A DNA stretch of 32,000 nt from Candidatus Helarchaeota ASGARD archaeon Hel_GB_B (GCA_005191425.1 SUPR01000008.1:25590-57589); one strand, 5' to 3'; counted from the first letter of the stretch, positions 248 to 12,885 are shown. Numbers and translations are program-made. The notes: generated from the letters alone by a model not told the origin.

Positions 248-1537
248 GTGTATATTTTGAAGAAAAATATTAAACCTTATGAGATTTTATATTATGCAAT
301 TTCATTAACCTATGATTTAGTAGATAGAATAGTTATTGAGGATGAGTTGCAAGTTTTAAAATCATATATGAAAAATATGCTACCTGTTCTAGAAGATTCT
401 TTACAAAAAGCTGCAGAAGGGCTACCTATTATTGGATACAATTTTGGGATACCACCAGAAATTTTCTTTTGTTTTGATTGTATACCATTTTGTTTTGAGG
501 CTACTCCATACATTATCTCTGCTCTTTTACCAAGTGGAGTTGAATATTTTTACGATAAAGCTAATGCCTGGGGTCATCCGTACCATACTTGTAGCTCTCA
601 AAAGGGAATAATGGGGATGATACTTGATGGTAAAATTGAATTGGACGCTATTATTACACCTACTTCTCCTTGCGATAATGCAATTGCTTCTTATCAATTT
701 TTTTCAAATTATATAGAAGTTCCAACTATTTATGCAGACATTCCAGCTCTCTATAATAATGAAAGAGCTTTTGAATATTATGCAGAAGAGTTAAAACGTA
801 TGGTCAATAGTGTCTCTAAAATTATAGGCCAAGAGCCAAATTTTGATAATATGATAAAAGCTATTGAATTTAATTCAAAAGCTCATCAATATTTATTAGA
901 AATTCATGAGTTAAAAAAAGCGGTACCTTGTCCTTTTGAAAGTATTATAAATCCAATTATTGCTGCTGCAACAACTTTAATGCCTGGGACCTATGAAAAG
1001 GTAGCTTTTTTTAAGGAAGTCTCTGAAATTGGTAAAAAAAGACTAAAAAGACATGCAGGACGACCAGGTATTGAAAAGTTTAGAAGTATTTGGCCTTATA
1101 TGAGTGTTTTTTATGATTTTAGCTTGTACGAATGGATGGATAGAGAAATGGGGATCTCGCAATTATGGGATATTTTTAATTACTATTTTTATGACCCTAT
1201 TCAGATAAAAAATAAAAAAGATATTGATGATATTTTTTTACAAATTGCAAGCCAAGGGAAGAATTTGCCTATGAACAGACAATCTTTACTTTCTGTAGAT
1301 GTCTTAATTGATGACATGATTTGGCTTGCAAAAGAATATAATTGCGATTTTACGGTTATTATGGAGCATTTAGGATGTAAACAAATGGCGTCAATATCTC
1401 AATTATTAAGAGAAGAATTAATGAACGAATTAGGTATGCCAACACTTATAATTGAGCTGGATGTAGGTGATAAAAGAGTCACTCCAATTGAGTCTATTAG
1501 ATATCAAATGAATGAATTTATAAACACATTACTATAA
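248..1537 (+). CDS. 2-hydroxyacyl-CoA dehydratase / benzoyl-CoA reductase family large subunit (HgdA/BcrB/BzdO-like), intact paralog
   Basis: 429-aa ORF, GTG start (TTG at 257 is an alternative). Family-type motifs GHPYHTCS, TSPCDN, EHLGCKQ and a C-terminal PTLIIELDVGD. Collinear with the interrupted copy at 7785-9053. Confidence 0.85.
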   Translation: MYILKKNIKPYEILYYAISLTYDLVDRIVIEDELQVLKSYMKNMLPVLEDSLQKAAEGLPIIGYNFGIPPEIFFCFDCIPFCFEATPYIISALLPSGVEYFYDKANAWGHPYHTCSSQKGIMGMILDGKIELDAIITPTSPCDNAIASYQFFSNYIEVPTIYADIPALYNNERAFEYYAEELKRMVNSVSKIIGQEPNFDNMIKAIEFNSKAHQYLLEIHELKKAVPCPFESIINPIIAAATTLMPGTYEKVAFFKEVSEIGKKRLKRHAGRPGIEKFRSIWPYMSVFYDFSLYEWMDREMGISQLWDIFNYYFYDPIQIKNKKDIDDIFLQIASQGKNLPMNRQSLLSVDVLIDDMIWLAKEYNCDFTVIMEHLGCKQMASISQLLREELMNELGMPTLIIELDVGDKRVTPIESIRYQMNEFINTLL

Positions 1538-2862: not shown

Positions 2863-3372
2863 ATGACCATATCTAAAATAAAAGAGTTCAATGCATTAAC
2901 TTATGAACAAATTAAATTGAATGTTTTAGCTAATCTATTTAGAATGCTTGTAGATATTTATGGTTATCCAAAAGCCAAGAAAAATCTATCAAAAATTGAG
3001 AGTGAAGAGATTTATGTACATTTTCCATATTTAAAAGGCGGGATAATTTTCAGGCCACATGGTGAAAGAGTAATTGGACAAGTAGTAAAGGAACTTAAGG
3101 ACTCAGAAAAACCAAAGGCAAGGCTTAATTTCAAGGTTAAAGATGAAAAAATTTATGATGTAATTGAGAAAATAATAAAATATAAATCGAATAATTGGAG
3201 CATTCTAAAAGTATTTTTTAAATATATACTTACTGGAAAAGTAGGACTTTCTATTCTTAAAGTAGGGACTATTATTGTTCTTTTTAAGTGTCTGATGATT
3301 GGAGACCATCCAATGTATAAAGAAGTTGACATTAGTGATTTTAGTAAACAAGAACAATTAGGTGGTGTTTAA
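2863..3372 (+). CDS. Hypothetical protein, possibly a divergent SCP2-like lipid-binding domain
   Basis: 169 aa, first gene of a tight operon. The segment KPKARLNFKVK...YILTGKVGL echoes the SCP2 'P-x-x-x-hydrophobic ... GK-hydrophobic' pattern; weak. Confidence 0.45.
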   Translation: MTISKIKEFNALTYEQIKLNVLANLFRMLVDIYGYPKAKKNLSKIESEEIYVHFPYLKGGIIFRPHGERVIGQVVKELKDSEKPKARLNFKVKDEKIYDVIEKIIKYKSNNWSILKVFFKYILTGKVGLSILKVGTIIVLFKCLMIGDHPMYKEVDISDFSKQEQLGGV

Positions 3373-3375
3373 ATT

Positions 3376-3732
3376 ATGGAAATACCTGATGAGCCAGATG
3401 ATATTTTAGGTTTAGGGATTTATCGTAGAATAAAAACAGTAACAGAGATCAGTCCTGATTTTAAAAAGTTTGTCAATAATTTAAATGAAAATATCTTATT
3501 ATCTACTGATTATTATGATTTTATGATTAAATTTAAAGATGAAAATTTTGAAGTAACAAGAGAAATTGAGAATCCTACTATTATAATCAAAATTAAAATT
3601 GAAGAATTCTTTAAAATTATGGAAAAAAGGACTTCTATGGTATTTTCATTTTTAAAAGGAAAAATGAAATTTAAAAAGGGTTTAACTAAACTTTTTAAAG
3701 TGTATAAATTGTTTGGAAATATTTTAAGCTGA
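3376..3732 (+). CDS. SCP2 sterol/lipid-binding domain protein
   Basis: 118 aa. NPTIIIKIKIEEFFKIMEKRTSMVFSFLKGKMKFKKGL fits the C-terminal SCP2 pattern. Starts 3 bp after the previous stop, with GGTG upstream. Confidence 0.7.
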   Translation: MEIPDEPDDILGLGIYRRIKTVTEISPDFKKFVNNLNENILLSTDYYDFMIKFKDENFEVTREIENPTIIIKIKIEEFFKIMEKRTSMVFSFLKGKMKFKKGLTKLFKVYKLFGNILS

Positions 3733-3736
3733 AATT

Positions 3737-5224
3737 ATGAAAAAATTAGTAGGGTGTGATAAATTGTTAGAAAGTAGTGAAAAACATGACATTATCAAGG
3801 AGAGCCTAATAAAAATTGTCGGAGAGCAATGGTATTCAGATTTTCCTGAAGAATTATTGATATATTCCTATGATATGACCGAAAATGACCCCAGTTTACC
3901 TGAATTTGTAGTAATGCCCAGGACTTCTGAAGAAATTCAGAAAATATTAAAATTTGCAAATGAAACTAAAACACCTGTCGTTCCATTTATTAGTGGAAAT
4001 AATGTGGGCGGACTTACAATACCTTTAAAGGGGGGAATTGTTGTAGATTTGAAACGAATGGACTCTATTTTACATTTTAATGAAGATGATATGTATGTCA
4101 TAATAGAACCTGGTGTTACATTTGGTCATTTGCATGCTTTTTTGGAAAAAACTAATTATAGGTATTGTTATCCATTTGCACCGCCATTTACTTCTGTTAT
4201 AGCAAATGCACTTCTTGATGGACTGAATAATTTGAGTTTAAGACACGGAAGTATGAATGAATGGATAAATGGGATTGAAGCAATACTTCCAAATGGTGAT
4301 TTAGTTAAAATAGGAACTTGCTGTGCTTGGGGTGATAATTATGATTTATGGTGGAGTAGGAACCCCATGCCCGATCTTCTTGGTCTTTTTACCAGTTGGC
4401 AAGGTATGACTGGTATTGTCACGAAGATGGCAGTTCAAGTATGGCCTCGAAGACCAATTAGGGATTGGAGGATTGTTTTATCTTTTAATGTTGAAGAGAC
4501 TTACAAATTTGTAAAGACTCTTACTCATTTAGAAATATTAAATGATATTCTTTTTATGTCAATTGAAACTGTAAAAATGATTGCTGGAGTACCATACGGT
4601 AAAGCCAAATATTTAGAAGGGGAGCCTCGTTGGGTTTGTCTATTAGATTTTTCTGCAAATACTAAATTAGAATATGAAGCTAAATTAGATATGATTAATA
4701 CTGCTTTTAAAAAATTAAAAGAGGTCGACCCAAAAGCTAATATGACTAATCTTGATGTAATGGAAAAGTTTTACGGAAAAAAAGTCGGTGATATAAAAAA
4801 TTTACCTGTCACGATTGGCCCAATGCTCGAATATGGCGGTCTAACATGGATGGGTACATATATGACAACAAAAACCGAAGCAGTCGTTAATGGAATAAAG
4901 ACTGCCTTTGATTTAATTGATAAATATAGATTTGAAAAATGCTTGTATTCTAGGTCTATGAAAGGGCATCATTATTTTGCATTTAGGTTTCTTTTACGTT
5001 TTTCTAAATTACAAGAAGGAGAAACTGAACGTATGCAAAAATTACAAGAAGAGTTGTTTAATAGTTTGTTTGAACTTGGTGCATTTCCATATAAGACTCC
5101 TGCTCGGTTTGCAAAACAGATTTTAAAGCGAGCAGACCCAAATTGGGTTAATTTGCTAAAAACTATAAAAAGTACAATTGATCCAAATGGTATAATGAAT
5201 CCAGGAAGATGGGGCTTAGAATGA
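3737..5224 (+). CDS. FAD-linked oxidase/dehydrogenase (GlcD / D-lactate dehydrogenase / VAO fold)
   Basis: 495 aa with PEFVVMP, SGNNVGG, VDLKRMD, EPGVTFG, GMTGIVTK and terminal DPNGIMNPGRW. Confidence 0.9.
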   Translation: MKKLVGCDKLLESSEKHDIIKESLIKIVGEQWYSDFPEELLIYSYDMTENDPSLPEFVVMPRTSEEIQKILKFANETKTPVVPFISGNNVGGLTIPLKGGIVVDLKRMDSILHFNEDDMYVIIEPGVTFGHLHAFLEKTNYRYCYPFAPPFTSVIANALLDGLNNLSLRHGSMNEWINGIEAILPNGDLVKIGTCCAWGDNYDLWWSRNPMPDLLGLFTSWQGMTGIVTKMAVQVWPRRPIRDWRIVLSFNVEETYKFVKTLTHLEILNDILFMSIETVKMIAGVPYGKAKYLEGEPRWVCLLDFSANTKLEYEAKLDMINTAFKKLKEVDPKANMTNLDVMEKFYGKKVGDIKNLPVTIGPMLEYGGLTWMGTYMTTKTEAVVNGIKTAFDLIDKYRFEKCLYSRSMKGHHYFAFRFLLRFSKLQEGETERMQKLQEELFNSLFELGAFPYKTPARFAKQILKRADPNWVNLLKTIKSTIDPNGIMNPGRWGLE

Positions 5225-6390
5225 GTGAAACTGAAGCAATTAATAAATATGTTGAAGAAATATATTGTTGTACAAGATGTGGGACATGTAAATATATATA
5301 TCAAGTTTATGATCCATCATGTCCCGCAGGCGTAAAATTCCGGTTTGAAACTTTTTATCCAAGTGGTAAAATTCATATTGCTAGAGGACTAATTGAAGGT
5401 AAAATTGAATGGAGTGAGCGAATTCGTGATATAATTTTTGCTTGTCCAACTTGTGCAAACTGTACAATTCAATGTCAATCAAGGCATCATGCACAGATTG
5501 TCGAAATAATTGAAGCATTAAGAGCTGATGCTGTTAGTAAAGGATTTGGACCCCTGCCTAATCAAAAGGCATTTGCCGATTCGGTTAAAAAGGAACATAA
5601 CCCTTACAAAGAAAAGCATAGCGATAGAATAAAATGGGCTAAAAATCTTGCCATCCCACAAAAAGACAAGGCTGAAATTTTGTATTTCGTTGGTTGTACT
5701 TCCTCATATAGACAGCAATCCTTGGCTCAAAAAACAGTTGAAATATTAAATAAACTTGGAGTAGATTATATTGTTTCCAGTGATGAATGGTGTTGTGGTT
5801 CTCCTTTAATAAGGACTGGCCAATTAGAACAAGTATCTCAATTAATTAATCATAATTTAGATTTAATCAAAAGTCTAGGGGTAAAAACTGTCATTACTTC
5901 ATGCGCTGGTTGCTATAGGACTTTAAAAATGGACTATCCTAAATATACCGATAAATTAGATGGAATTGAATTCCTCCACATTACAGAATTTCTACAGCAA
6001 TTCATTTCTAAAAAGAAATTAAAATTTAAAAAAGGAAAAGAATTTAAAGTCACTTACCACGACCCTTGTCATTTAGGTCGCCATTCTAATATCTATGAAG
6101 AGCCAAGGGCAGTATTAAACGCAATTCCTGGACTGAAGCTCATTGAAATGCCTCGAAATAGAGAAAATGCTTGGTGTTGTGGAGCTGGCGGCGGTGTAAA
6201 GGCAGGATATAAAGAATGGGCGGTCGAAATCGCATCTGACAGAATCCATGAAGCAGAACAGATTAATGCTGAAATATTGACCAGTGCATGCCCTTTTTGC
6301 AAAACTAATCTCCAAGATGCTATTAATGAAACAAATTCTAACATAAAATTCATGGACATTGTAGAACTTTTAAACGAAGTGATTATATAA
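5221..6390 (+). CDS. (Fe-S)-binding CCG-domain oxidoreductase subunit (GlcF/GlpC/HdrD-like)
   Basis: Two ferredoxin-type motifs (CTRCGTC...CP and CPTCANCTIQC) and CCG motifs (FVGC, WCCGSP, SCAGC, HDPCHLGR, CCGAGGG, SACPFC). Likely start is ATG 5221, an ATGA overlap with the upstream stop; the ORF track starts at 5209. Confidence 0.92.
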   Translation: MSETEAINKYVEEIYCCTRCGTCKYIYQVYDPSCPAGVKFRFETFYPSGKIHIARGLIEGKIEWSERIRDIIFACPTCANCTIQCQSRHHAQIVEIIEALRADAVSKGFGPLPNQKAFADSVKKEHNPYKEKHSDRIKWAKNLAIPQKDKAEILYFVGCTSSYRQQSLAQKTVEILNKLGVDYIVSSDEWCCGSPLIRTGQLEQVSQLINHNLDLIKSLGVKTVITSCAGCYRTLKMDYPKYTDKLDGIEFLHITEFLQQFISKKKLKFKKGKEFKVTYHDPCHLGRHSNIYEEPRAVLNAIPGLKLIEMPRNRENAWCCGAGGGVKAGYKEWAVEIASDRIHEAEQINAEILTSACPFCKTNLQDAINETNSNIKFMDIVELLNEVII

Positions 6391-6646: not shown

Positions 6647-7783
6647 ATGGACTTAGATAATTTGGATTTTATTAAGCTCTCTCAAACTATTTATAATGAT
6701 TATATTGATAATTGGAAAAAAAATAATAAAAAAGTTTATGGATATTATTGTTCTTATATCCCTGAAGAAGTATTATATGCAATGGAAATACTACCATTTC
6801 GTATTAGAGGGACTGGTTGTAATGATACTGCCTTAGCTGACTCAATTTTGTCTCATTTCAATTGTAGTTTTGTCCGATGTACTTTAAATTTAGTAATGGA
6901 AGGTAAGTATGATTTTTTAGATGGAATGGTATTTAGCAATTCATGTGATCATGTCAGAAGGCAGTATGATATTTGGAACCATAAAATTATGAAAGGAAAG
7001 GATTTTCCTTTAATTTTTCTGTCAATTCCACATAAAATTACTGAAGCAGGGCTGGCTTGGCTAAAAGAGGAATATTCTTTATTAATAAAAAAGCTTGAAG
7101 ATGACCAAAAAAAAGCGTTTGATGAAGATAATTTAATAGATATTATTAATATTTTTAATAAAAATAAGCAATTACTAAAAAGTGTTCTCAAGTTCAAAAC
7201 AGCAAAAGAACCAAAATTAAAAGGCAGCGAATTTTGTAAAATTATGATCGCAAATTCATCTATTCCAAAAGAAGATAGTAATAATGAATTGGAAAAAGTT
7301 ATAGAAACATTAAAGGAGAGAGAAAATCTTAAAGATTACAAAGCTAGATTTATGCTTGTTGGTAGCTATGTAGATAACCCCGATTTTTACAAAATTTTTG
7401 AAGATGTAGGTGGTTTAATAGTTACTGATTCATTATGTTATGGTCTTAGATATTTCTGGAATGAAATTAAAGTGTCTAAAGAGCCACTTTTAGAAGTAAT
7501 AAATTCATATTATAATAAGATTTCATGTCCTAGAATGATGGATCAACATCAGCAAAGACTGGATTTTATTAAAGGTCAAATTAAAGAGTCAAATATCGAC
7601 GGAGTAATATTAGAGCGTATGGAGTTTTGTGACTTACACGGCGTCGATAATATGCTCTTACAGCATGAATTAGAAGATATCGGCATCCCCGTTTTGAGTC
7701 TAGATAGAGAATATTTGTTAAGTGATATTGCTAGATTTAAAACTAGAGCAGAAGCATTTATTGAGCAAATTTTAGTGAGTTAA
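6647..7783 (+). CDS. 2-hydroxyacyl-CoA dehydratase / benzoyl-CoA reductase family small subunit (HgdB/BcrC/BzdN-like)
   Basis: 378 aa with GYYCSYIPEE, NCSFVR, SNSCDHVRR, DSLCYG, CPRM, FCDLHG and RFKTRAEAFIE. Confidence 0.9.
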   Translation: MDLDNLDFIKLSQTIYNDYIDNWKKNNKKVYGYYCSYIPEEVLYAMEILPFRIRGTGCNDTALADSILSHFNCSFVRCTLNLVMEGKYDFLDGMVFSNSCDHVRRQYDIWNHKIMKGKDFPLIFLSIPHKITEAGLAWLKEEYSLLIKKLEDDQKKAFDEDNLIDIINIFNKNKQLLKSVLKFKTAKEPKLKGSEFCKIMIANSSIPKEDSNNELEKVIETLKERENLKDYKARFMLVGSYVDNPDFYKIFEDVGGLIVTDSLCYGLRYFWNEIKVSKEPLLEVINSYYNKISCPRMMDQHQQRLDFIKGQIKESNIDGVILERMEFCDLHGVDNMLLQHELEDIGIPVLSLDREYLLSDIARFKTRAEAFIEQILVS

Positions 7784-7784
7784 A

Positions 7785-9053
7785 ATATCTAGTAGAATTA
7801 AAGCTGTTGAAATTATTTACCGTGCAAGTGACTTAACTCTTGACCTTGTAAATAGAGTAATGACAGAAAATGAAATGGTAATTTTGAAAAGTTTCCTGAA
7901 AAATTTAATTTCTCATTTTGAAGATATCTTACAAAAAGCTGAAGAAGGTGTGCCAATAATCGGACATCATTTTGGGTTTCCTGGCGAAGTCTTACAATGT
8001 TTTGATAATATAGCAACTGTTTCTTTTGAAGCATTACCATATTTATATTCCGCATTGTTTCCACAAGGTAGCGAATATTTCTATGATGTAATGAATGGTT
8101 GGGGACATCCATATCATGTCTGTACCGCAATAAAAGGCCTTTTGGGTATGTTTAAAGAAAATTTATTAAATTTTGATGTCGTGCTATGTCCTTCAGGGCC
8201 ATGTGATAATGGTATTGGGAGTTATCCTGCTTATGCACAAATTGGAAAAATACCTTTAATAGTTGCTGATATGCCCTATTTACATAATGAACGCGGATAT
8301 TATTATTATGCTCGGGAATTAAAATCGGCATTAGAAAAAATTTAAAAAATTATAGGTCAAGAACCCGATTATTCTAGATTTAAAAAAGCAATTGAATATA
8401 GCAACAAAGCTCATGAATATTTTACTGAAATTAACCAATTAAGGAGGCTAGCTCCATGTCCTCTTGAGAGTATGGCAAATCCAATAATAACAGCAGCACA
8501 TGCTTTTTTGTCAGGTAAGCCACAATATACTAACTTTTTTAAAGATGTTTATGAAATTGCAAAAAAACGAGTAAAAAATAACCAAGGACGCTTTGGAGAA
8601 GAGAAGTTTCGGTCTATATGGCCATATATGTCTATCTTTTTCGATTTTAGCTTCTATGATTGGATGGACCGAGATTTAGGAATGAGCCAAATAATTGATA
8701 TTTTCAATCATTTCTTTTTCGATCAAGTATCTACTAAAAATATCGATGAAATGTTCTTAGGGCTTGCTAAAAAGTGGCATGAATATCCTATGATCAGACA
8801 AAGTCAGAGTTTTATAGATCAGATGATTGATGATTATGTGTGGGCAATAAAAGAATTTAAAATAGACTGTGCAATATTGACTGAACATATCGGTTGTAAA
8901 GCTCTTGCTGCTACAACACAAATCTTAAAAGAAGTTTTAAGAGACGAAGGTGTACCAATGTGTAATATCGAAATTGATGTTGGTGATAAGCGGTTCACAT
9001 CTATAGATTCAGTAAAACATGAAATTACTGAATTTGTAAAAACCATGCTCTAA
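7785..9053 (+). pseudogene. Dehydratase/reductase large subunit (HgdA/BcrB-like) interrupted by an in-frame TAA at 8343-8345
   Basis: ORFs 7860-8345 and 8472-9053 are in the same frame. Reading through gives LEKI*KIIGQEPDYSRFKKAIEYSNKAHEY..., which aligns without gaps to VNSVSKIIGQEPNFDNMIKAIEFNSKAHQY in the 248-1537 paralog. Homology also extends upstream of ATG 7860. A true pseudogene and a consensus error cannot be distinguished here. Confidence 0.8.
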
Positions 9054-9104
9054 TTTTTTATTTTACTTATCCATTTTGGACTAATTGTTTTAAAATTATT
9101 TAAT

Positions 9105-10265
9105 TTAAAAATAAAATGGCCTTATCTGCTTTTGTAAATATTTCTTTTTAATATTTACTTTATACTTTTTTTCAATCTGGCTCATTAGATATTCATCTTC
9201 ATAAAATACAAATGATATTGCAGTACCTTTTTTTCCCATCCTACCAGTCCGACCTATACGGTGGACGTATGTTTCAATACTATCTGGCATATCAAAATTG
9301 ATAACATGCGTAATTCCTTCAATATCAATTCCTCTTGAAACTACATCCGTTGCAATTAGAAAACGTCCTTTATTTTTAAAATTATTCAATGTTCGTTCTC
9401 TTTGTCTTTGGCTTAGATCACTACAAATATACTCTGCTGAATAACCTAAAGATCTTAATTCATCACATAATTTTCTAGTTTCAACTCGCGTTTTAACAAA
9501 AATCAATATCTTTAGATTTTTTACCTTCGAGCCATTATTTGATATTTCGTCTAATATTCTTGTCAAAAGGTTAATTTTATCATTAGAATTTTCTATAATA
9601 TAATATATTTGATTAATTGATGATGGTACCTGCTCTTCATTCTTTCTTCTGACCGAAATTGTAATTGCATGGGGGGCATATTTTTTTGAAAGTCTTATAG
9701 TTTCATCTGGTATTGTTGCCCCAAAAAACATAAATTGTTGCTGTCCTTTTTGCCATTTCATATATCTTAATATTTGGTTTACATCCTCGTAAAACCCCAT
9801 ATCAAACATTTTATCTGCTTCATCAAGTACAATGATTTTTGGCTTAGTCCTTAGTCCATGTCTAAAATGGTCTAATAAACGTCCTGGAGTCGAAACTATA
9901 ATATGAACGCCTCTTTTTAATTGTTCCATTTGGTTATCAAATGAAACACCGCCATAAATTGACAATATTTTAATTCTGGTATATTTAGAAATCATTGTTA
10001 ATTCATCAGAAATTTGTTTAGCCAGTTCTCTCGTGGGAGAAATTATAGCTGCTTGAATCAAATTTTTATTTTCATCAATATTTTCAATAATAGGAATACC
10101 AAAAGCAAGCGTTTTTCCTGACCCAGTTTTTGCTTGTCCTATTAAACATTTACCCTTCATTAAATGAGGGATTGCTTTTTCTTGAATGTCTGTCGCTTCA
10201 ATGAACCCATTAGATGTGAGTCCTTTTAAGACTTTATCAGATAATTTTAATTCTGTAAATTTCAT
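9105..10265 (-). CDS. DEAD-box RNA helicase (minimal core)
   Basis: Q motif (GFIEATDIQ), AKTGSGKT, PTRELA, TPGRL, DEAD, GAT in place of SAT, RGIDI and HRIGRTGR. Confidence 0.97.
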   Translation of the reverse strand: MKFTELKLSDKVLKGLTSNGFIEATDIQEKAIPHLMKGKCLIGQAKTGSGKTLAFGIPIIENIDENKNLIQAAIISPTRELAKQISDELTMISKYTRIKILSIYGGVSFDNQMEQLKRGVHIIVSTPGRLLDHFRHGLRTKPKIIVLDEADKMFDMGFYEDVNQILRYMKWQKGQQQFMFFGATIPDETIRLSKKYAPHAITISVRRKNEEQVPSSINQIYYIIENSNDKINLLTRILDEISNNGSKVKNLKILIFVKTRVETRKLCDELRSLGYSAEYICSDLSQRQRERTLNNFKNKGRFLIATDVVSRGIDIEGITHVINFDMPDSIETYVHRIGRTGRMGKKGTAISFVFYEDEYLMSQIEKKYKVNIKKKYLQKQIRPFYF

Positions 10266-10442
10266 TAGATTTTACCTGTAAATTTTTAAATTTGTAAAAA
10301 ATAGTATCGAATAATTAAAAAATCTTTTACCATTTCTTATTAGAATGTGATTTAATAACCAGATTAATATTTTAATTTTTCCTTAAAATTTGCAAACAAA
10401 TCAAAATAATTTTCTAAATATTGAAAAAATTGGTGATTAAAT

Positions 10443-10943
10443 ATGAATATCGAAGAAAAAATAGCCCGCGAACTTGAAAAAGGAGAGACATTAATAGATT
10501 TAGGTTATTTAGATGAAGCACTCGAGCGACTTGATATTGTATTAGAATTAGATAATGATAATGAAGAAGCTTGGATGTTTAAATGCGCAGCTTTTGAACG
10601 TAAAGGTGATTTCGAAAATGCATTAAGGTGTATTGATAAAGTAATTGAAATTTCTCCAAGAAATAAAATGGCGTGGGATTATAAAGGTTATTTATTATAT
10701 AATTTAAAAGAATTTGAGAATGCTATTAATTGTTTTAAAAAAGCTATTGAAATTAATGATAAATATACTAATGCTTATTATAATTTGGCATGCTGTTATT
10801 CATTATTAGAGAAAAAATCTGATACTTTAAATACATTAAAAACATTGGTCCAATTAAAACCTAAAATTAAGACTGAAATTAAAAATGAAAAAGATTTTAA
10901 GTGGCTTTACGATGAACCCGACTTTATAAATCTTGTGGAATGA
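10443..10943 (+). CDS. Tetratricopeptide repeat protein
   Basis: 166 aa with TPR-spaced AW..K..A / AW.YKG / AYYNLACCY repeats. GGTGA ribosome-binding site upstream. Confidence 0.9.
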   Translation: MNIEEKIARELEKGETLIDLGYLDEALERLDIVLELDNDNEEAWMFKCAAFERKGDFENALRCIDKVIEISPRNKMAWDYKGYLLYNLKEFENAINCFKKAIEINDKYTNAYYNLACCYSLLEKKSDTLNTLKTLVQLKPKIKTEIKNEKDFKWLYDEPDFINLVE

Positions 10944-11295
10944 TTGATAATTATTTTTCTATTTTTATACATTTTTATGAATGGATATCTTTAAATTCTA
11001 ATAAATAATAAAAAATTATTTCAAATTTACATATTCTTTTTTGAATCTCTTTATGGTGAATATTAAATTCTTAAATTAATTAACTATTTGAAATAAAGTC
11101 CAACAAAAAAATAAAAATATATCTTGATTATTAGAAAAATTTTAATTAATTTTTTAAGAATTAATAAGTTAATAAAGCAAAAAAGAATATTTAAAATAAA
11201 TTATTTAAAAAAATCGGAATATTATATTATCATTTCTAATTATTGCATATCTGTACCAATAATTTATGATTTATCTTAAAAAAAAGGCGAGCTAT

Positions 11296-12072
11296 TTGAC
11301 TTTTAATGCAGGTTTAGATATAGGTTCATGTTATTGCAAATGCGTAGTAATTAATGAAAATAAAGAAATCATAGCAACATCAATTTCACCATTAGGTGGA
11401 AACCCCAGAAATGCTTCTAAACTTACTTTTGAAAATGCGTTAAAATCAGCAAATCTTAAAAGTAAAAATATTAAAAATATAGTTTGTGTGGGCAGAAATC
11501 GGAAAAAAGTTTCATTTAAAAGTCATGAGGAGTCAGAGATCAAGTGTATTGCAAAAGGAGCTCGAGAATTAATTCCGTCTTTAAGAACAATTGTAGACCT
11601 TGGTGCGCTAACCAATAAGGCAATTAAACTTAATTCAAATGGAAAAGTGGTCGATTATGTAATTAATGATAAATGCGCATCTGGAAGTGGGATGTTCCTA
11701 GAATTAGTAGCTAAAGCTTTAGAAATGGACATTAGTGATATCGATAAAAAGGCAAAAATGTCTGAAAATCCTCTCCCAATTACAAATCAATGTAGTATTT
11801 TTGCTGAAAGCGAAGTAATATATTTAGTTAATGAAAGTAAAAATGAAATCGACATAATTGCAGGCGTTACAAATTCAATTGCAAACCGAATATATTCACT
11901 CTTAAAAAGGGTAAATATGGAAAAAGATATTATTTTAACGGGTGGAGTCGCAAATACTAATTATATTAAGTTAAAATTAGAAGAAAGGCTTAATATGGAA
12001 ATAAAAGAACCTACTATTTCTCCAATTTATATCGCTGCATTTGGTGCATCCTTATATGCAAGTGAAATTTAA
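11296..12072 (+). CDS. ATP-dependent [4Fe-4S] activator (HgdC/BcrD-like, ASKHA fold), non-canonical copy
   Basis: GLDIGS, DLGAL, NDKCASGSGMFLE, NQCSIFAESE and LTGGVA. Likely start is TTG 11296 with GGCGAG upstream; the track starts at ATG 11266. Confidence 0.9.
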   Translation: MTFNAGLDIGSCYCKCVVINENKEIIATSISPLGGNPRNASKLTFENALKSANLKSKNIKNIVCVGRNRKKVSFKSHEESEIKCIAKGARELIPSLRTIVDLGALTNKAIKLNSNGKVVDYVINDKCASGSGMFLELVAKALEMDISDIDKKAKMSENPLPITNQCSIFAESEVIYLVNESKNEIDIIAGVTNSIANRIYSLLKRVNMEKDIILTGGVANTNYIKLKLEERLNMEIKEPTISPIYIAAFGASLYASEI

Positions 12073-12087
12073 ACCGGTGAATTTAAA

Positions 12088-12885
12088 ATGGCTAATTATT
12101 TAGGGATTGATATTGGGTCATTAACTGGAAAAGCAGTTATTATTGATGATAATAATAATATAAAAGCACAAAAAGTAATTTATGTAAAAAAAACACCTTT
12201 GAAAACTGTTAATGTACTATTAGACTCTATTTTGCCTGAAATTGGTATTGATGACCTCTCAAAAATAACTTATTGCGTTGGAACTGGTTATGGTCGTAGG
12301 AAAATACCTCTTGCTAATGAAACAATTAGTGAGATTACCTGTCATGGAACAGGTGCCCATCATGTTATGCCCTCTTTAAGAACTGTTATTGACATTGGTG
12401 GTCAGGACTGTAAGGTTATTAGGCTAGATGAAAATGGGAATTTAAAGAATTTTATTATGAATGAGAAATGCGCGGCAGGTACTGGGCGATACCTAGAATT
12501 AATGAGTGAAACTCTAAATATCCCTCTTGAAAAACTTGGTCCAATTTCATTAAAAACAAAATCGCCTGTATCTCTTCAAAGTAAATGTTCATTATACGCT
12601 CAATTTGAAGTTATTTCGCTATTAGGGGAAGGTATTAAAAAACCAGATATCGCAGCTGGAATAAATAAAGCAATGGCTGAAAGGGTCATAAATCTCGCTG
12701 AAAAAGTCGGTATTGAAGAGGACATAACTGTAAGCGGTGGAGTTGCTAAAAATATCGGTGTAGTTATCAATATGGAAAAATTACTGGGTATAAAATTTAA
12801 AAAACTACCTGTAGATCCCCAAATAATTGGTGCACTTGGGGCAGCTTTAATTTCAAGAAAATCCTTTTTAAAGAAAAACAGCTGA
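12088..12885 (+). CDS. ATP-dependent [4Fe-4S] activator (HgdC/BcrA-like), canonical copy
   Basis: GIDIGS, GTGYGR, EITCHG, DIGGQD, MNEKCAAGTGRYLE, SKCSLYA, SGGVAKN and GALGAA. GGTGA ribosome-binding site upstream. Confidence 0.93.
   Translation: MANYLGIDIGSLTGKAVIIDDNNNIKAQKVIYVKKTPLKTVNVLLDSILPEIGIDDLSKITYCVGTGYGRRKIPLANETISEITCHGTGAHHVMPSLRTVIDIGGQDCKVIRLDENGNLKNFIMNEKCAAGTGRYLELMSETLNIPLEKLGPISLKTKSPVSLQSKCSLYAQFEVISLLGEGIKKPDIAAGINKAMAERVINLAEKVGIEEDITVSGGVAKNIGVVINMEKLLGIKFKKLPVDPQIIGALGAALISRKSFLKKNS

Follow-up and report, generated by a model that had tools for sequence, protein, structure and literature searches.

Does a gene set of an Asgard archaeon that resembles a class I benzoyl-CoA reductase (BCR) encode that enzyme, or another enzyme of similar construction? 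The question is raised by a locus of Candidatus Helarchaeota archaeon Hel_GB_B (SUPR01000008.1:25590-57589), analysed here as a window of 32,000 nucleotides at the very end of contig C171 in a 3.54-Mb metagenome-assembled genome (MAG; G000) with 94% completeness. Genes were called from a list of open reading frames (ORFs) and a Pfam profile search of the window, and compared with NCBIfam equivalog models and their cutoffs. We conclude that the gene set belongs to an uncharacterised branch, found mainly in Asgard archaea, of the superfamily comprising BCR, 2-hydroxyacyl-CoA dehydratases and the double-cubane cluster proteins (DCCP), and that it is probably not a true benzoyl-CoA reductase. The closest homologues carry the labels Helarchaeota, Lokiarchaeota or Promethearchaeota; Candidatus Sigynarchaeum springense supplies one of the related loci. 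The features of the system in the window are the following:

248..1537, plus strand: L429, intact large-subunit paralogue of 429 aa (Pfam HGD-D, E 3e-43)
2863..3372, plus strand: u169, predicted SCP2-fold protein (AlphaFold2 model and Foldseek)
3376..3732, plus strand: u118, SCP2-like protein (Pfam SCP2, PF02036, in orthologues)
3737..5224, plus strand: FAD-linked oxidase of the VAO/PCMH/GlcD superfamily (Pfam FAD_binding_4 and FAD-oxidase_C)
5209..6390, plus strand: CCG-domain Fe-S protein, TfrB/HdrD/GlcF-like (Pfam CCG, twice, and Fer4_8)
6647..7783, plus strand: S378, small HGD-D subunit of 378 aa with a six-cysteine double-cubane motif (Pfam PF06050, E 5e-85)
7785..9053, plus strand: L397, large HGD-D subunit gene of 422 codons, broken (translation; Pfam HGD-D on both pieces)
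8343..8345, plus strand: in-frame TAA, read as a nonsense allele in L397 (sequence)
11266..12072, plus strand: A268, divergent ATPase subunit of 268 aa (Pfam BcrAD_BadFG, E 3e-44)
12088..12885, plus strand: A265, canonical ATPase subunit of 265 aa (Pfam BcrAD_BadFG, E 7e-58)

Pfam HGD-D subunits together with an ASKHA ATPase that carries two cluster-bridging cysteines place the set in the superfamily; both cysteines are kept in all ATPase orthologues examined (seven of each type). An initial annotation of this DNA had already recognised the 378-aa small subunit and two adjacent but different activators, one with DLGAL and CASGSGMFLE (A268) and one with DIGGQD and CAAGTGRY (A265), and these descriptions stand. 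Its large subunit of about 420 aa exists as a frame of 422 codons, but that frame is interrupted by a TAA, which leaves one ORF of 161 aa and another of 193 aa. Likewise, all components of its four-component set are present, but they are not contiguous, and the intact paralogue L429 had been overlooked.

One resemblance to BCR lies in the iron-sulfur ligands. In DCCP an [8Fe-9S] cluster is found in both subunits; class I BCR has [8Fe-9S] in BzdN and a three-cysteine [4Fe-4S]-OH2 cluster in BzdO, the latter being the catalytic cluster with ligands Cys95, Cys128 and Cys380; and the dehydratase has [4Fe-5S] in HadC and [4Fe-4S]-OH2 in HadB (PMC11971306). Among structures in the Protein Data Bank (PDB), S378 is matched best by BzdN (159 bits), followed by HadC (113), DCCP (95) and MbdN (91). 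Its Cys35, Cys73, Cys100, Cys264, Cys294 and Cys328 align on cysteines of BzdN (8s02_B) and do not vary among ten orthologues. Of the 136 full-length cluster representatives nearest to S378, 118 retain the complete set of six. The equivalents of BzdN Arg53 and Arg267 are also invariant in S, that of His330 occurs in eight of the ten orthologues, and the seventh cysteine of DCCP is retained in only four of them. By alignment, S thus keeps the putative [8Fe-9S] double-cubane ligands of BzdN and DCCP. In the large subunit, three cysteines are invariant across 16 sequences: two fall on BzdO Cys128 and Cys380 in a profile alignment, and the first was assigned from its spacing and from the alignment with HadB. 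Glu84 of L429 is invariant as well, lies 31 residues before the first cysteine (the spacing for Glu65, the proton donor of BzdO, is 30) and aligns with a Glu of HadB, the N-terminal region of L being unaligned to BzdO. With six cysteines in S and three in L, the predicted cluster layout matches that of class I BCR and not that of the 2-hydroxyacyl-CoA dehydratases.

The L profile is about equally distant from the solved structures (DCCP 48 bits, HadB 42, BzdO 40, MbdO 35), and the AlphaFold2 model of L429 (pLDDT 84.8) fits HadB (TM score 0.78/0.83), BzdO (0.77) and MbdO (0.76) equally well in superposition. No score of S, L, A268 or A265 reaches the cutoff of any NCBIfam BCR equivalog model (TIGR03190/03191/03192, TIGR02259/02261/02263). 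For S378 the scores, given with their cutoffs, are all too low (double-cubane NF040772 178/350, BzdN 170/454, HadC 153/700 and BcrC 121/421 bits), and L reaches 20-29/449 with BzdO and 23-35/750 with HadB. A265 scores 243 bits with CoA_E_activ, 218/380 with bzdQ and 182/578 with BcrA, and A268 scores 111/380 with BzdQ and 101/313 with BcrD, the BcrD range for the set being 101-114/313.

The two ATPases share about 32% identity. A268 is matched in the PDB by MbdQ (176 bits), HadI (175), HgdC (167) and MbdP (135), and A265 by MbdQ (219), HadI (199) and HgdC (195). A265 has the motifs DIGGQD and KCAAGTGRY; A268 has a degenerate phosphate-2 motif, DLGALT, and KCASGSGMFLE. The sequence G[GAS][LIF][TS] replaces GGQD in 14 of 14 A268-type proteins examined, and delta subunits of the Mbd/Bzd type have DIGGQT and KCASGTGMFLEK. 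The three kinds of ATPase compare as follows:

Canonical ATPase: phosphate-2 motif D-I-G-G-Q-D; cluster loop KCAAGTGRF; Glu at the position of DCCP-R E69
BCR delta ATPase: phosphate-2 motif GGQT; cluster loop KCASGTGMF; Asp at the position of DCCP-R E69
A268-type ATPase: phosphate-2 motif G[GAS][LIF][TS]; cluster loop KCA[SAG]G[SA]G[MIYF]; Glu at the position of DCCP-R E69

These motifs show that one subunit has decayed both in the A268 type and in BCR delta, in parallel but not in the same way. In DCCP-R, residues Q92-D94 bind phosphates, and D94 and E69 are implicated in hydrolysis (PMC9351452). Because A268 lacks the Gln and Asp of GGQD, which serve phosphate binding and hydrolysis in DCCP-R, we infer one competent ATP site, in A265, and one degenerate site, in A268.

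The origin of the pair was examined in an IQ-TREE phylogeny of 66 rows, which left out Thauera-type BcrA/BcrD. A search with 78 residues of MbdP supplied the delta references, namely Thauera chlorobenzoica MbdP and its relatives, and alpha was represented by three proteins with an alpha-delta fusion, of which the N-terminal half was used; the other rows were HadI-type proteins, Fusobacterium HgdC, Klebsiella YjiL and operon-verified Asgard orthologues. The A268 types form a clade (support 100/100) and are sister to the A265 types, both together receiving 100/98, and the BCR delta clade (100/100) is placed apart from the Asgard pair. Constraining A268 to group with delta was 28.9 log-likelihood units worse and was rejected by the approximately unbiased (AU) test (p = 0.0018). 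This sisterhood and the rejected constraint indicate that the two-gene ATPase of these archaea arose by an independent duplication, convergent with the heterodimer of BCR. The divergent activator, which the initial annotation had compared to BcrD, is thus not an orthologue of BcrD/BzdP. Proteins P0247, P0253 and P0254 are single polypeptides of 533-569 aa in which an alpha (BzdQ/MbdQ-like) N-terminal half is fused to a delta (BzdP/MbdP-like) C-terminal half. In another system, in genomes of family f4, an HGD-D gene is followed by two tandem ATPase genes (G019:C45:11391-13953, G021:C101:46400-48960, G012:C5:67451-69997 and G013:C101:44-2624); pairing of ATPase genes thus seems to occur more than once among the HGD-D systems of Asgard archaea.

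The gene set is a conserved unit in relatives. We mapped ten related loci and the Sigynarchaeum locus (11 loci in total) by tblastn and ORF mapping, and found the order u169, u118, FAD oxidase, CCG protein, S, L (two L genes at some loci), A268 type and A265 type. The full operon is contiguous and on one strand in G001, of the same genus, and in G004; that of G003 is also contiguous, with u169 directly before S. The run S-L-A268-A265 is unbroken in G029 and Sigynarchaeum too, and both ATPase genes lie side by side in G001, G002, G003, G004, G029 and Sigynarchaeum. S is accompanied by a conserved L in nine of the 11 loci, and u169 lies upstream of S in nine of 11, including loci that have no ATPase genes nearby. 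The FAD oxidase gene accompanies the set in G001, G003, G004, G027 and Sigynarchaeum. In the window, the catalytic genes S378 and L397 are split from the A268 and A265 genes by two genes that are unrelated to the system:

9105..10265, minus strand: DEAD-box helicase gene (Pfam)
10443..10943, plus strand: TPR protein gene (Pfam)

Neither gene occurs in the unbroken operons of G001, G003 and G004; the presence of the helicase and TPR genes here reflects a local event, either a rearrangement or an insertion. In G001, residues 1-175 and 175-392 of the CCG Fe-S protein are matched in different frames that adjoin each other (L014:11983-13160), which suggests a frameshift or an assembly error. G000 also encodes three small-subunit-like HGD-D genes (24-37% identity to S378) and two more activase genes (C171:11-931, on the minus strand, C65:16855-17856, C182:28530-29597, C106:25253-26041 and C119:16949-17716), and therefore contains several systems of the superfamily.

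The accompanying genes offer hints of the kind of substrate. No Pfam match was obtained for u169, and its AlphaFold2 model (pLDDT 78.6) is matched best in Foldseek by UbiJ-SCP2 (6h6n, E 3.5e-6) and then by SCP2 domains. The u118 orthologues of G001 and G003 match Pfam SCP2 (PF02036) at 26.0 and 28.3 bits, above the cutoff of 21.3, and u118 of the window itself scores 15.7 bits. In the PDB, the FAD oxidase is matched by 4-phenol oxidases and p-cresol methylhydroxylase at 96-105 bits, compared with 78 bits for D-lactate dehydrogenase, the FAD domain alone being aligned; this resemblance hints at a phenolic substrate. Eugenol oxidase, vanillyl-alcohol oxidase and p-cresol methylhydroxylase all rank above the D-lactate and glycolate dehydrogenases (57-78 bits). 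The CCG protein is TfrB/HdrD-like and scores 275 bits with NCBIfam TfrB, under the cutoff of 385.

The large-subunit gene next to S378 is broken. Two HGD-D pieces, 7860-8345 and 8472-9053, share one frame and are separated by a single TAA (8343-8345). Similarity to L429 reaches upstream to 7785, one base past the stop of S378, which gives 422 codons, and L429 and the product of 7785-9053 are 49% identical. The internal stop is absent from the orthologues in the 28 other genomes with a match, of 31 relatives. An exact-sequence look-up returned the intact proteins P0515, P0516 and P0520, which are 97.6-99.5% identical to the window product and have Ser at the position of the stop codon; P0517 and P0522, on other contigs, terminate at the same residue as L397 of the window. 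In our reading, the TAA stems from a genuine nonsense mutation of TCA, an allele segregating in the population. An alternative genetic code or readthrough is ruled out: S378 and L397 themselves end in TAA, relatives read Ser, and no orthologue has an internal stop. A one-off sequencing error is unlikely, because two other contigs yield products ending there. The intact L429 could stand in for L397.

The N-terminus of L397 is a separate peculiarity. Codon 1 is ATA, and the first possible ATG, GTG or TTG comes not before codon 26; two of the intact near-identical L397 proteins have Met at codon 1. The second large-subunit gene of G013 (L020:3166-3310) has a conserved N-terminus and no canonical start, close behind the preceding gene, as in L397 (window 7785-7860). 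These start-less N-termini may reflect non-canonical initiation or reinitiation.

From this combination of features we favour, with moderate confidence, an ATP-driven reductase of the BCR/dehydratase/DCCP superfamily that is built like class I BCR and acts on a lipophilic substrate. In such an enzyme, A265 and A268 would form a heterodimer holding one [4Fe-4S] cluster with two cysteines from each subunit. Only A265 would have a complete ATP site, A268 having lost the Gln and Asp of its phosphate-2 motif. Driven by ATP hydrolysis, an electron of low potential would reach the [8Fe-9S] double cubane of S378, which would act as an electron store, and S378 would hand electrons to the three-cysteine [4Fe-4S] cluster of the large subunit, which in this genome must be L429 because L397 is broken. 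Reduction of the substrate would occur at the open iron site of this cluster. The two SCP2-fold proteins would probably present the lipophilic substrate, and the FAD oxidase and CCG Fe-S protein would probably catalyse a neighbouring redox step. More tentatively, the set may represent a new catalytic function: a very-low-potential ATP-driven reductase that is widespread in Asgard archaea and is driven by a convergent heterodimeric ATPase with one functional ATP site. Dedicated SCP2-fold carriers would deliver its substrate, a lipophilic compound perhaps not bound to CoA, for example a lipid of the phenolic, isoprenoid or quinone-like kind.

Several observations weigh against a reductase built like class I BCR. 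His131 of BzdO, which adjoins the cluster-bound water, acts as acid/base in the Birch-type reduction and is a feature of class membership, is absent from L: the position is Gly in L397, Ala in L429 and Thr or another residue in the family, and HadB has Ala. A split with 95/92 support groups both Asgard ATPases with HadI/HgdC, to the exclusion of BCR alpha and delta. The formation of an A265/A268 heterodimer is suggested by gene adjacency and co-conservation. Ferredoxin, CoA ligase and CoA transferase genes were not found in the conserved module, and a search for a CoA ligase or transferase conserved beside the operon in relatives also returned none. The nonsense allele of the large subunit and the interrupted operon mean, finally, that the system may be decaying in this genome.

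Because L lacks His131 and the ATPases are nearer to HadI/HgdC, dehydratase-type chemistry is the alternative that survives best, although we consider it rather unlikely. A single electron, injected by the ATPase pair, would then act catalytically, L would dehydrate a possibly long-chain 2-hydroxyacyl thioester via a ketyl radical, and the FAD/CCG pair would interconvert 2-hydroxy and 2-oxo acids. The small residue shared with HadB at the His131 position (PMC11971306) fits this proposal, as do the top fold match of L, HadB, and the FAD oxidase, whose superfamily counts D-2-hydroxyacid dehydrogenases among its members and whose highest-scoring NCBIfam model is glcD (94 bits). The proposal does not account for the six double-cubane cysteines of S, where HadC has a three-cysteine [4Fe-5S] site (PMC11971306), nor for two conserved, different ATPase genes, since known dehydratases use a single homodimeric activator gene. 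The missing CoA transferase, HadB and HadC scores far under their cutoffs, and the better match of the FAD oxidase to 4-phenol oxidases than to D-lactate dehydrogenase also count against it. The initial annotation had regarded a grouping of both activators with homodimeric HgdC, and of the subunits with amino-acid dehydratases, as contrary to its view; the activators do fall on the HgdC/HadI side, but S is unlike the dehydratase beta subunit.

Improbable is a DCCP-like reductase of a small non-CoA molecule, in which the double cubane of S would be the active site and L an accessory. The double-cubane reductase model is the top NCBIfam hit of S, the six cysteines are conserved, and no CoA-activating gene was found in the module; on the other hand, 178 bits fall well below the cutoff of 350, and DCCPs are homodimers served by a homodimeric reductase. 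A conserved L beside S in nine of 11 loci, with an open three-cysteine cluster and the fold of a catalytic subunit, counts against such an enzyme, the seventh DCCP cysteine is retained in only four of ten orthologues, and the positive charge around the distal subcluster resembles that of BzdN, in which the cluster stores electrons (PMC11971306).

A genuine Bzd-type reductase of benzoyl-CoA or a substituted aryl-CoA, as annotated for similar Asgard operons, is very improbable: BzdN as best PDB match of S, MbdQ as that of both ATPases, the cluster layout of class I BCR, the likeness of the FAD oxidase to p-cresol methylhydroxylase and vanillyl-alcohol oxidase, which are enzymes of aromatic compounds, and the metagenomic reports of BCR operons of Bzd type in Lokiarchaeota, Thorarchaeota, Heimdallarchaeota and Hermodarchaeota (bioRxiv 10.1101/763623; PMC8163825) stand against subfamily scores far under cutoff (BzdN, BzdO, BzdQ and BcrD), the absence of His131, an L profile no closer to BzdO/MbdO than to DCCP or HadB, an ATPase pair that is not orthologous to alpha and delta, and the lack of a downstream pathway. 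The last point follows from the genome search that the initial annotation had proposed: in the 94% complete G000, neither Dch (60/292 bits), Had (100/339), Oah (49/464) nor benzoate-CoA ligase (233/375) scored above cutoff, and none of these, nor a ferredoxin, was found in the window. Pfam and profile searches of the window also agree with the earlier statement that it holds no CoA ligase or ring-cleavage gene. The proposed resemblance to class I BCR is supported in the six-cysteine S, the three-cysteine L and two non-identical ATPases with bridging cysteines. The initial annotation rightly named no substrate; the substrate is probably not benzoyl-CoA in the canonical sense. As for references, canonical BCR was found neither in a plasmid search, which returned only YjiL, HgdC and other activases, nor in 14 control genomes. 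Locus L026 on the Azoarcus sp. KH32C plasmid (NC_020548.1, 626673-630864) carries an activase gene, a 686-aa protein and another dehydratase-family protein; the 686-aa protein, whose start matches the activase model, is annotated as a 2-hydroxyacyl-CoA dehydratase, and the cluster adjoins an AraC regulator and a YfhL ferredoxin.

To date, BzdNO alone among double-cubane enzymes has been assigned a defined physiological role (PMC11971306). If the favoured ATP-driven reductase is borne out, the combination of [8Fe-9S] and [4Fe-4S] clusters would occur in another, separate family, and the range of reactions known for low-potential reduction powered by ATP would grow. The Asgard ATPase, with two subunits that evolved independently of those of BCR and a degenerate site in one of them, would allow the importance of asymmetry in electron-activating ATPases to be tested in a natural setting. 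The association with SCP2 carriers may point to redox reactions of lipids in the archaea most closely related to eukaryotes. If the metagenomic calls of benzoyl-CoA reduction in Lokiarchaeota and relatives rest on the S/L/A268/A265 family described here, the claims of aromatic degradation need re-examination.

Among known systems, the class I BCRs of the Bzd and Mbd types (BzdNOPQ, PDB 8S02; MbdONPQ, PDB 9GAI) resemble the Asgard set most in construction. Both have four components, a six-cysteine small subunit with Arg/His surroundings, a large subunit with a three-cysteine open [4Fe-4S] cluster, and two different ASKHA ATPases that each contribute two cysteines to a shared cluster, one nucleotide site being degenerate. 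The Asgard subunits differ in lying far under the equivalog cutoffs, in missing BzdO His131 and in the separate ATPase duplication (AU p = 0.0018). The degeneracy itself takes another form, G[GAS][LIF][TS] as opposed to GGQT with a Glu-to-Asp exchange in BCR delta, and the archaeal set is linked to SCP2-like proteins and an FAD/CCG pair, whereas BCR is linked to ferredoxin and Dch/Had/Oah. With HadBC-HadI and HgdAB-HgdC the set shares the superfamily, an L fold closest to HadB, the small residue at the His131 position and the side of the ATPase tree; it differs in having six cluster cysteines in S instead of three, two ATPase genes instead of one, and neither a CoA transferase nor a context of amino-acid fermentation. 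DCCP and DCCP-R (YjiM/YjiL) have in common with it the six-cysteine double-cubane motif and an ATP-dependent ASKHA reductase partner, but both are homodimers, whereas the Asgard S pairs with a three-cysteine L and the ATPase comes from two genes. The published Asgard 'Bzd-type BCR' operons, compared here by their descriptions (bioRxiv 10.1101/763623; PMC8163825), are likewise four-gene HGD-D/BcrAD sets from Lokiarchaeota and related groups, annotated by KEGG and BLAST; the Hermodarchaeota 'BCR' clusters are described with adjoining Dch, Had and ferredoxin genes, which are lacking from the Asgard set analysed here.

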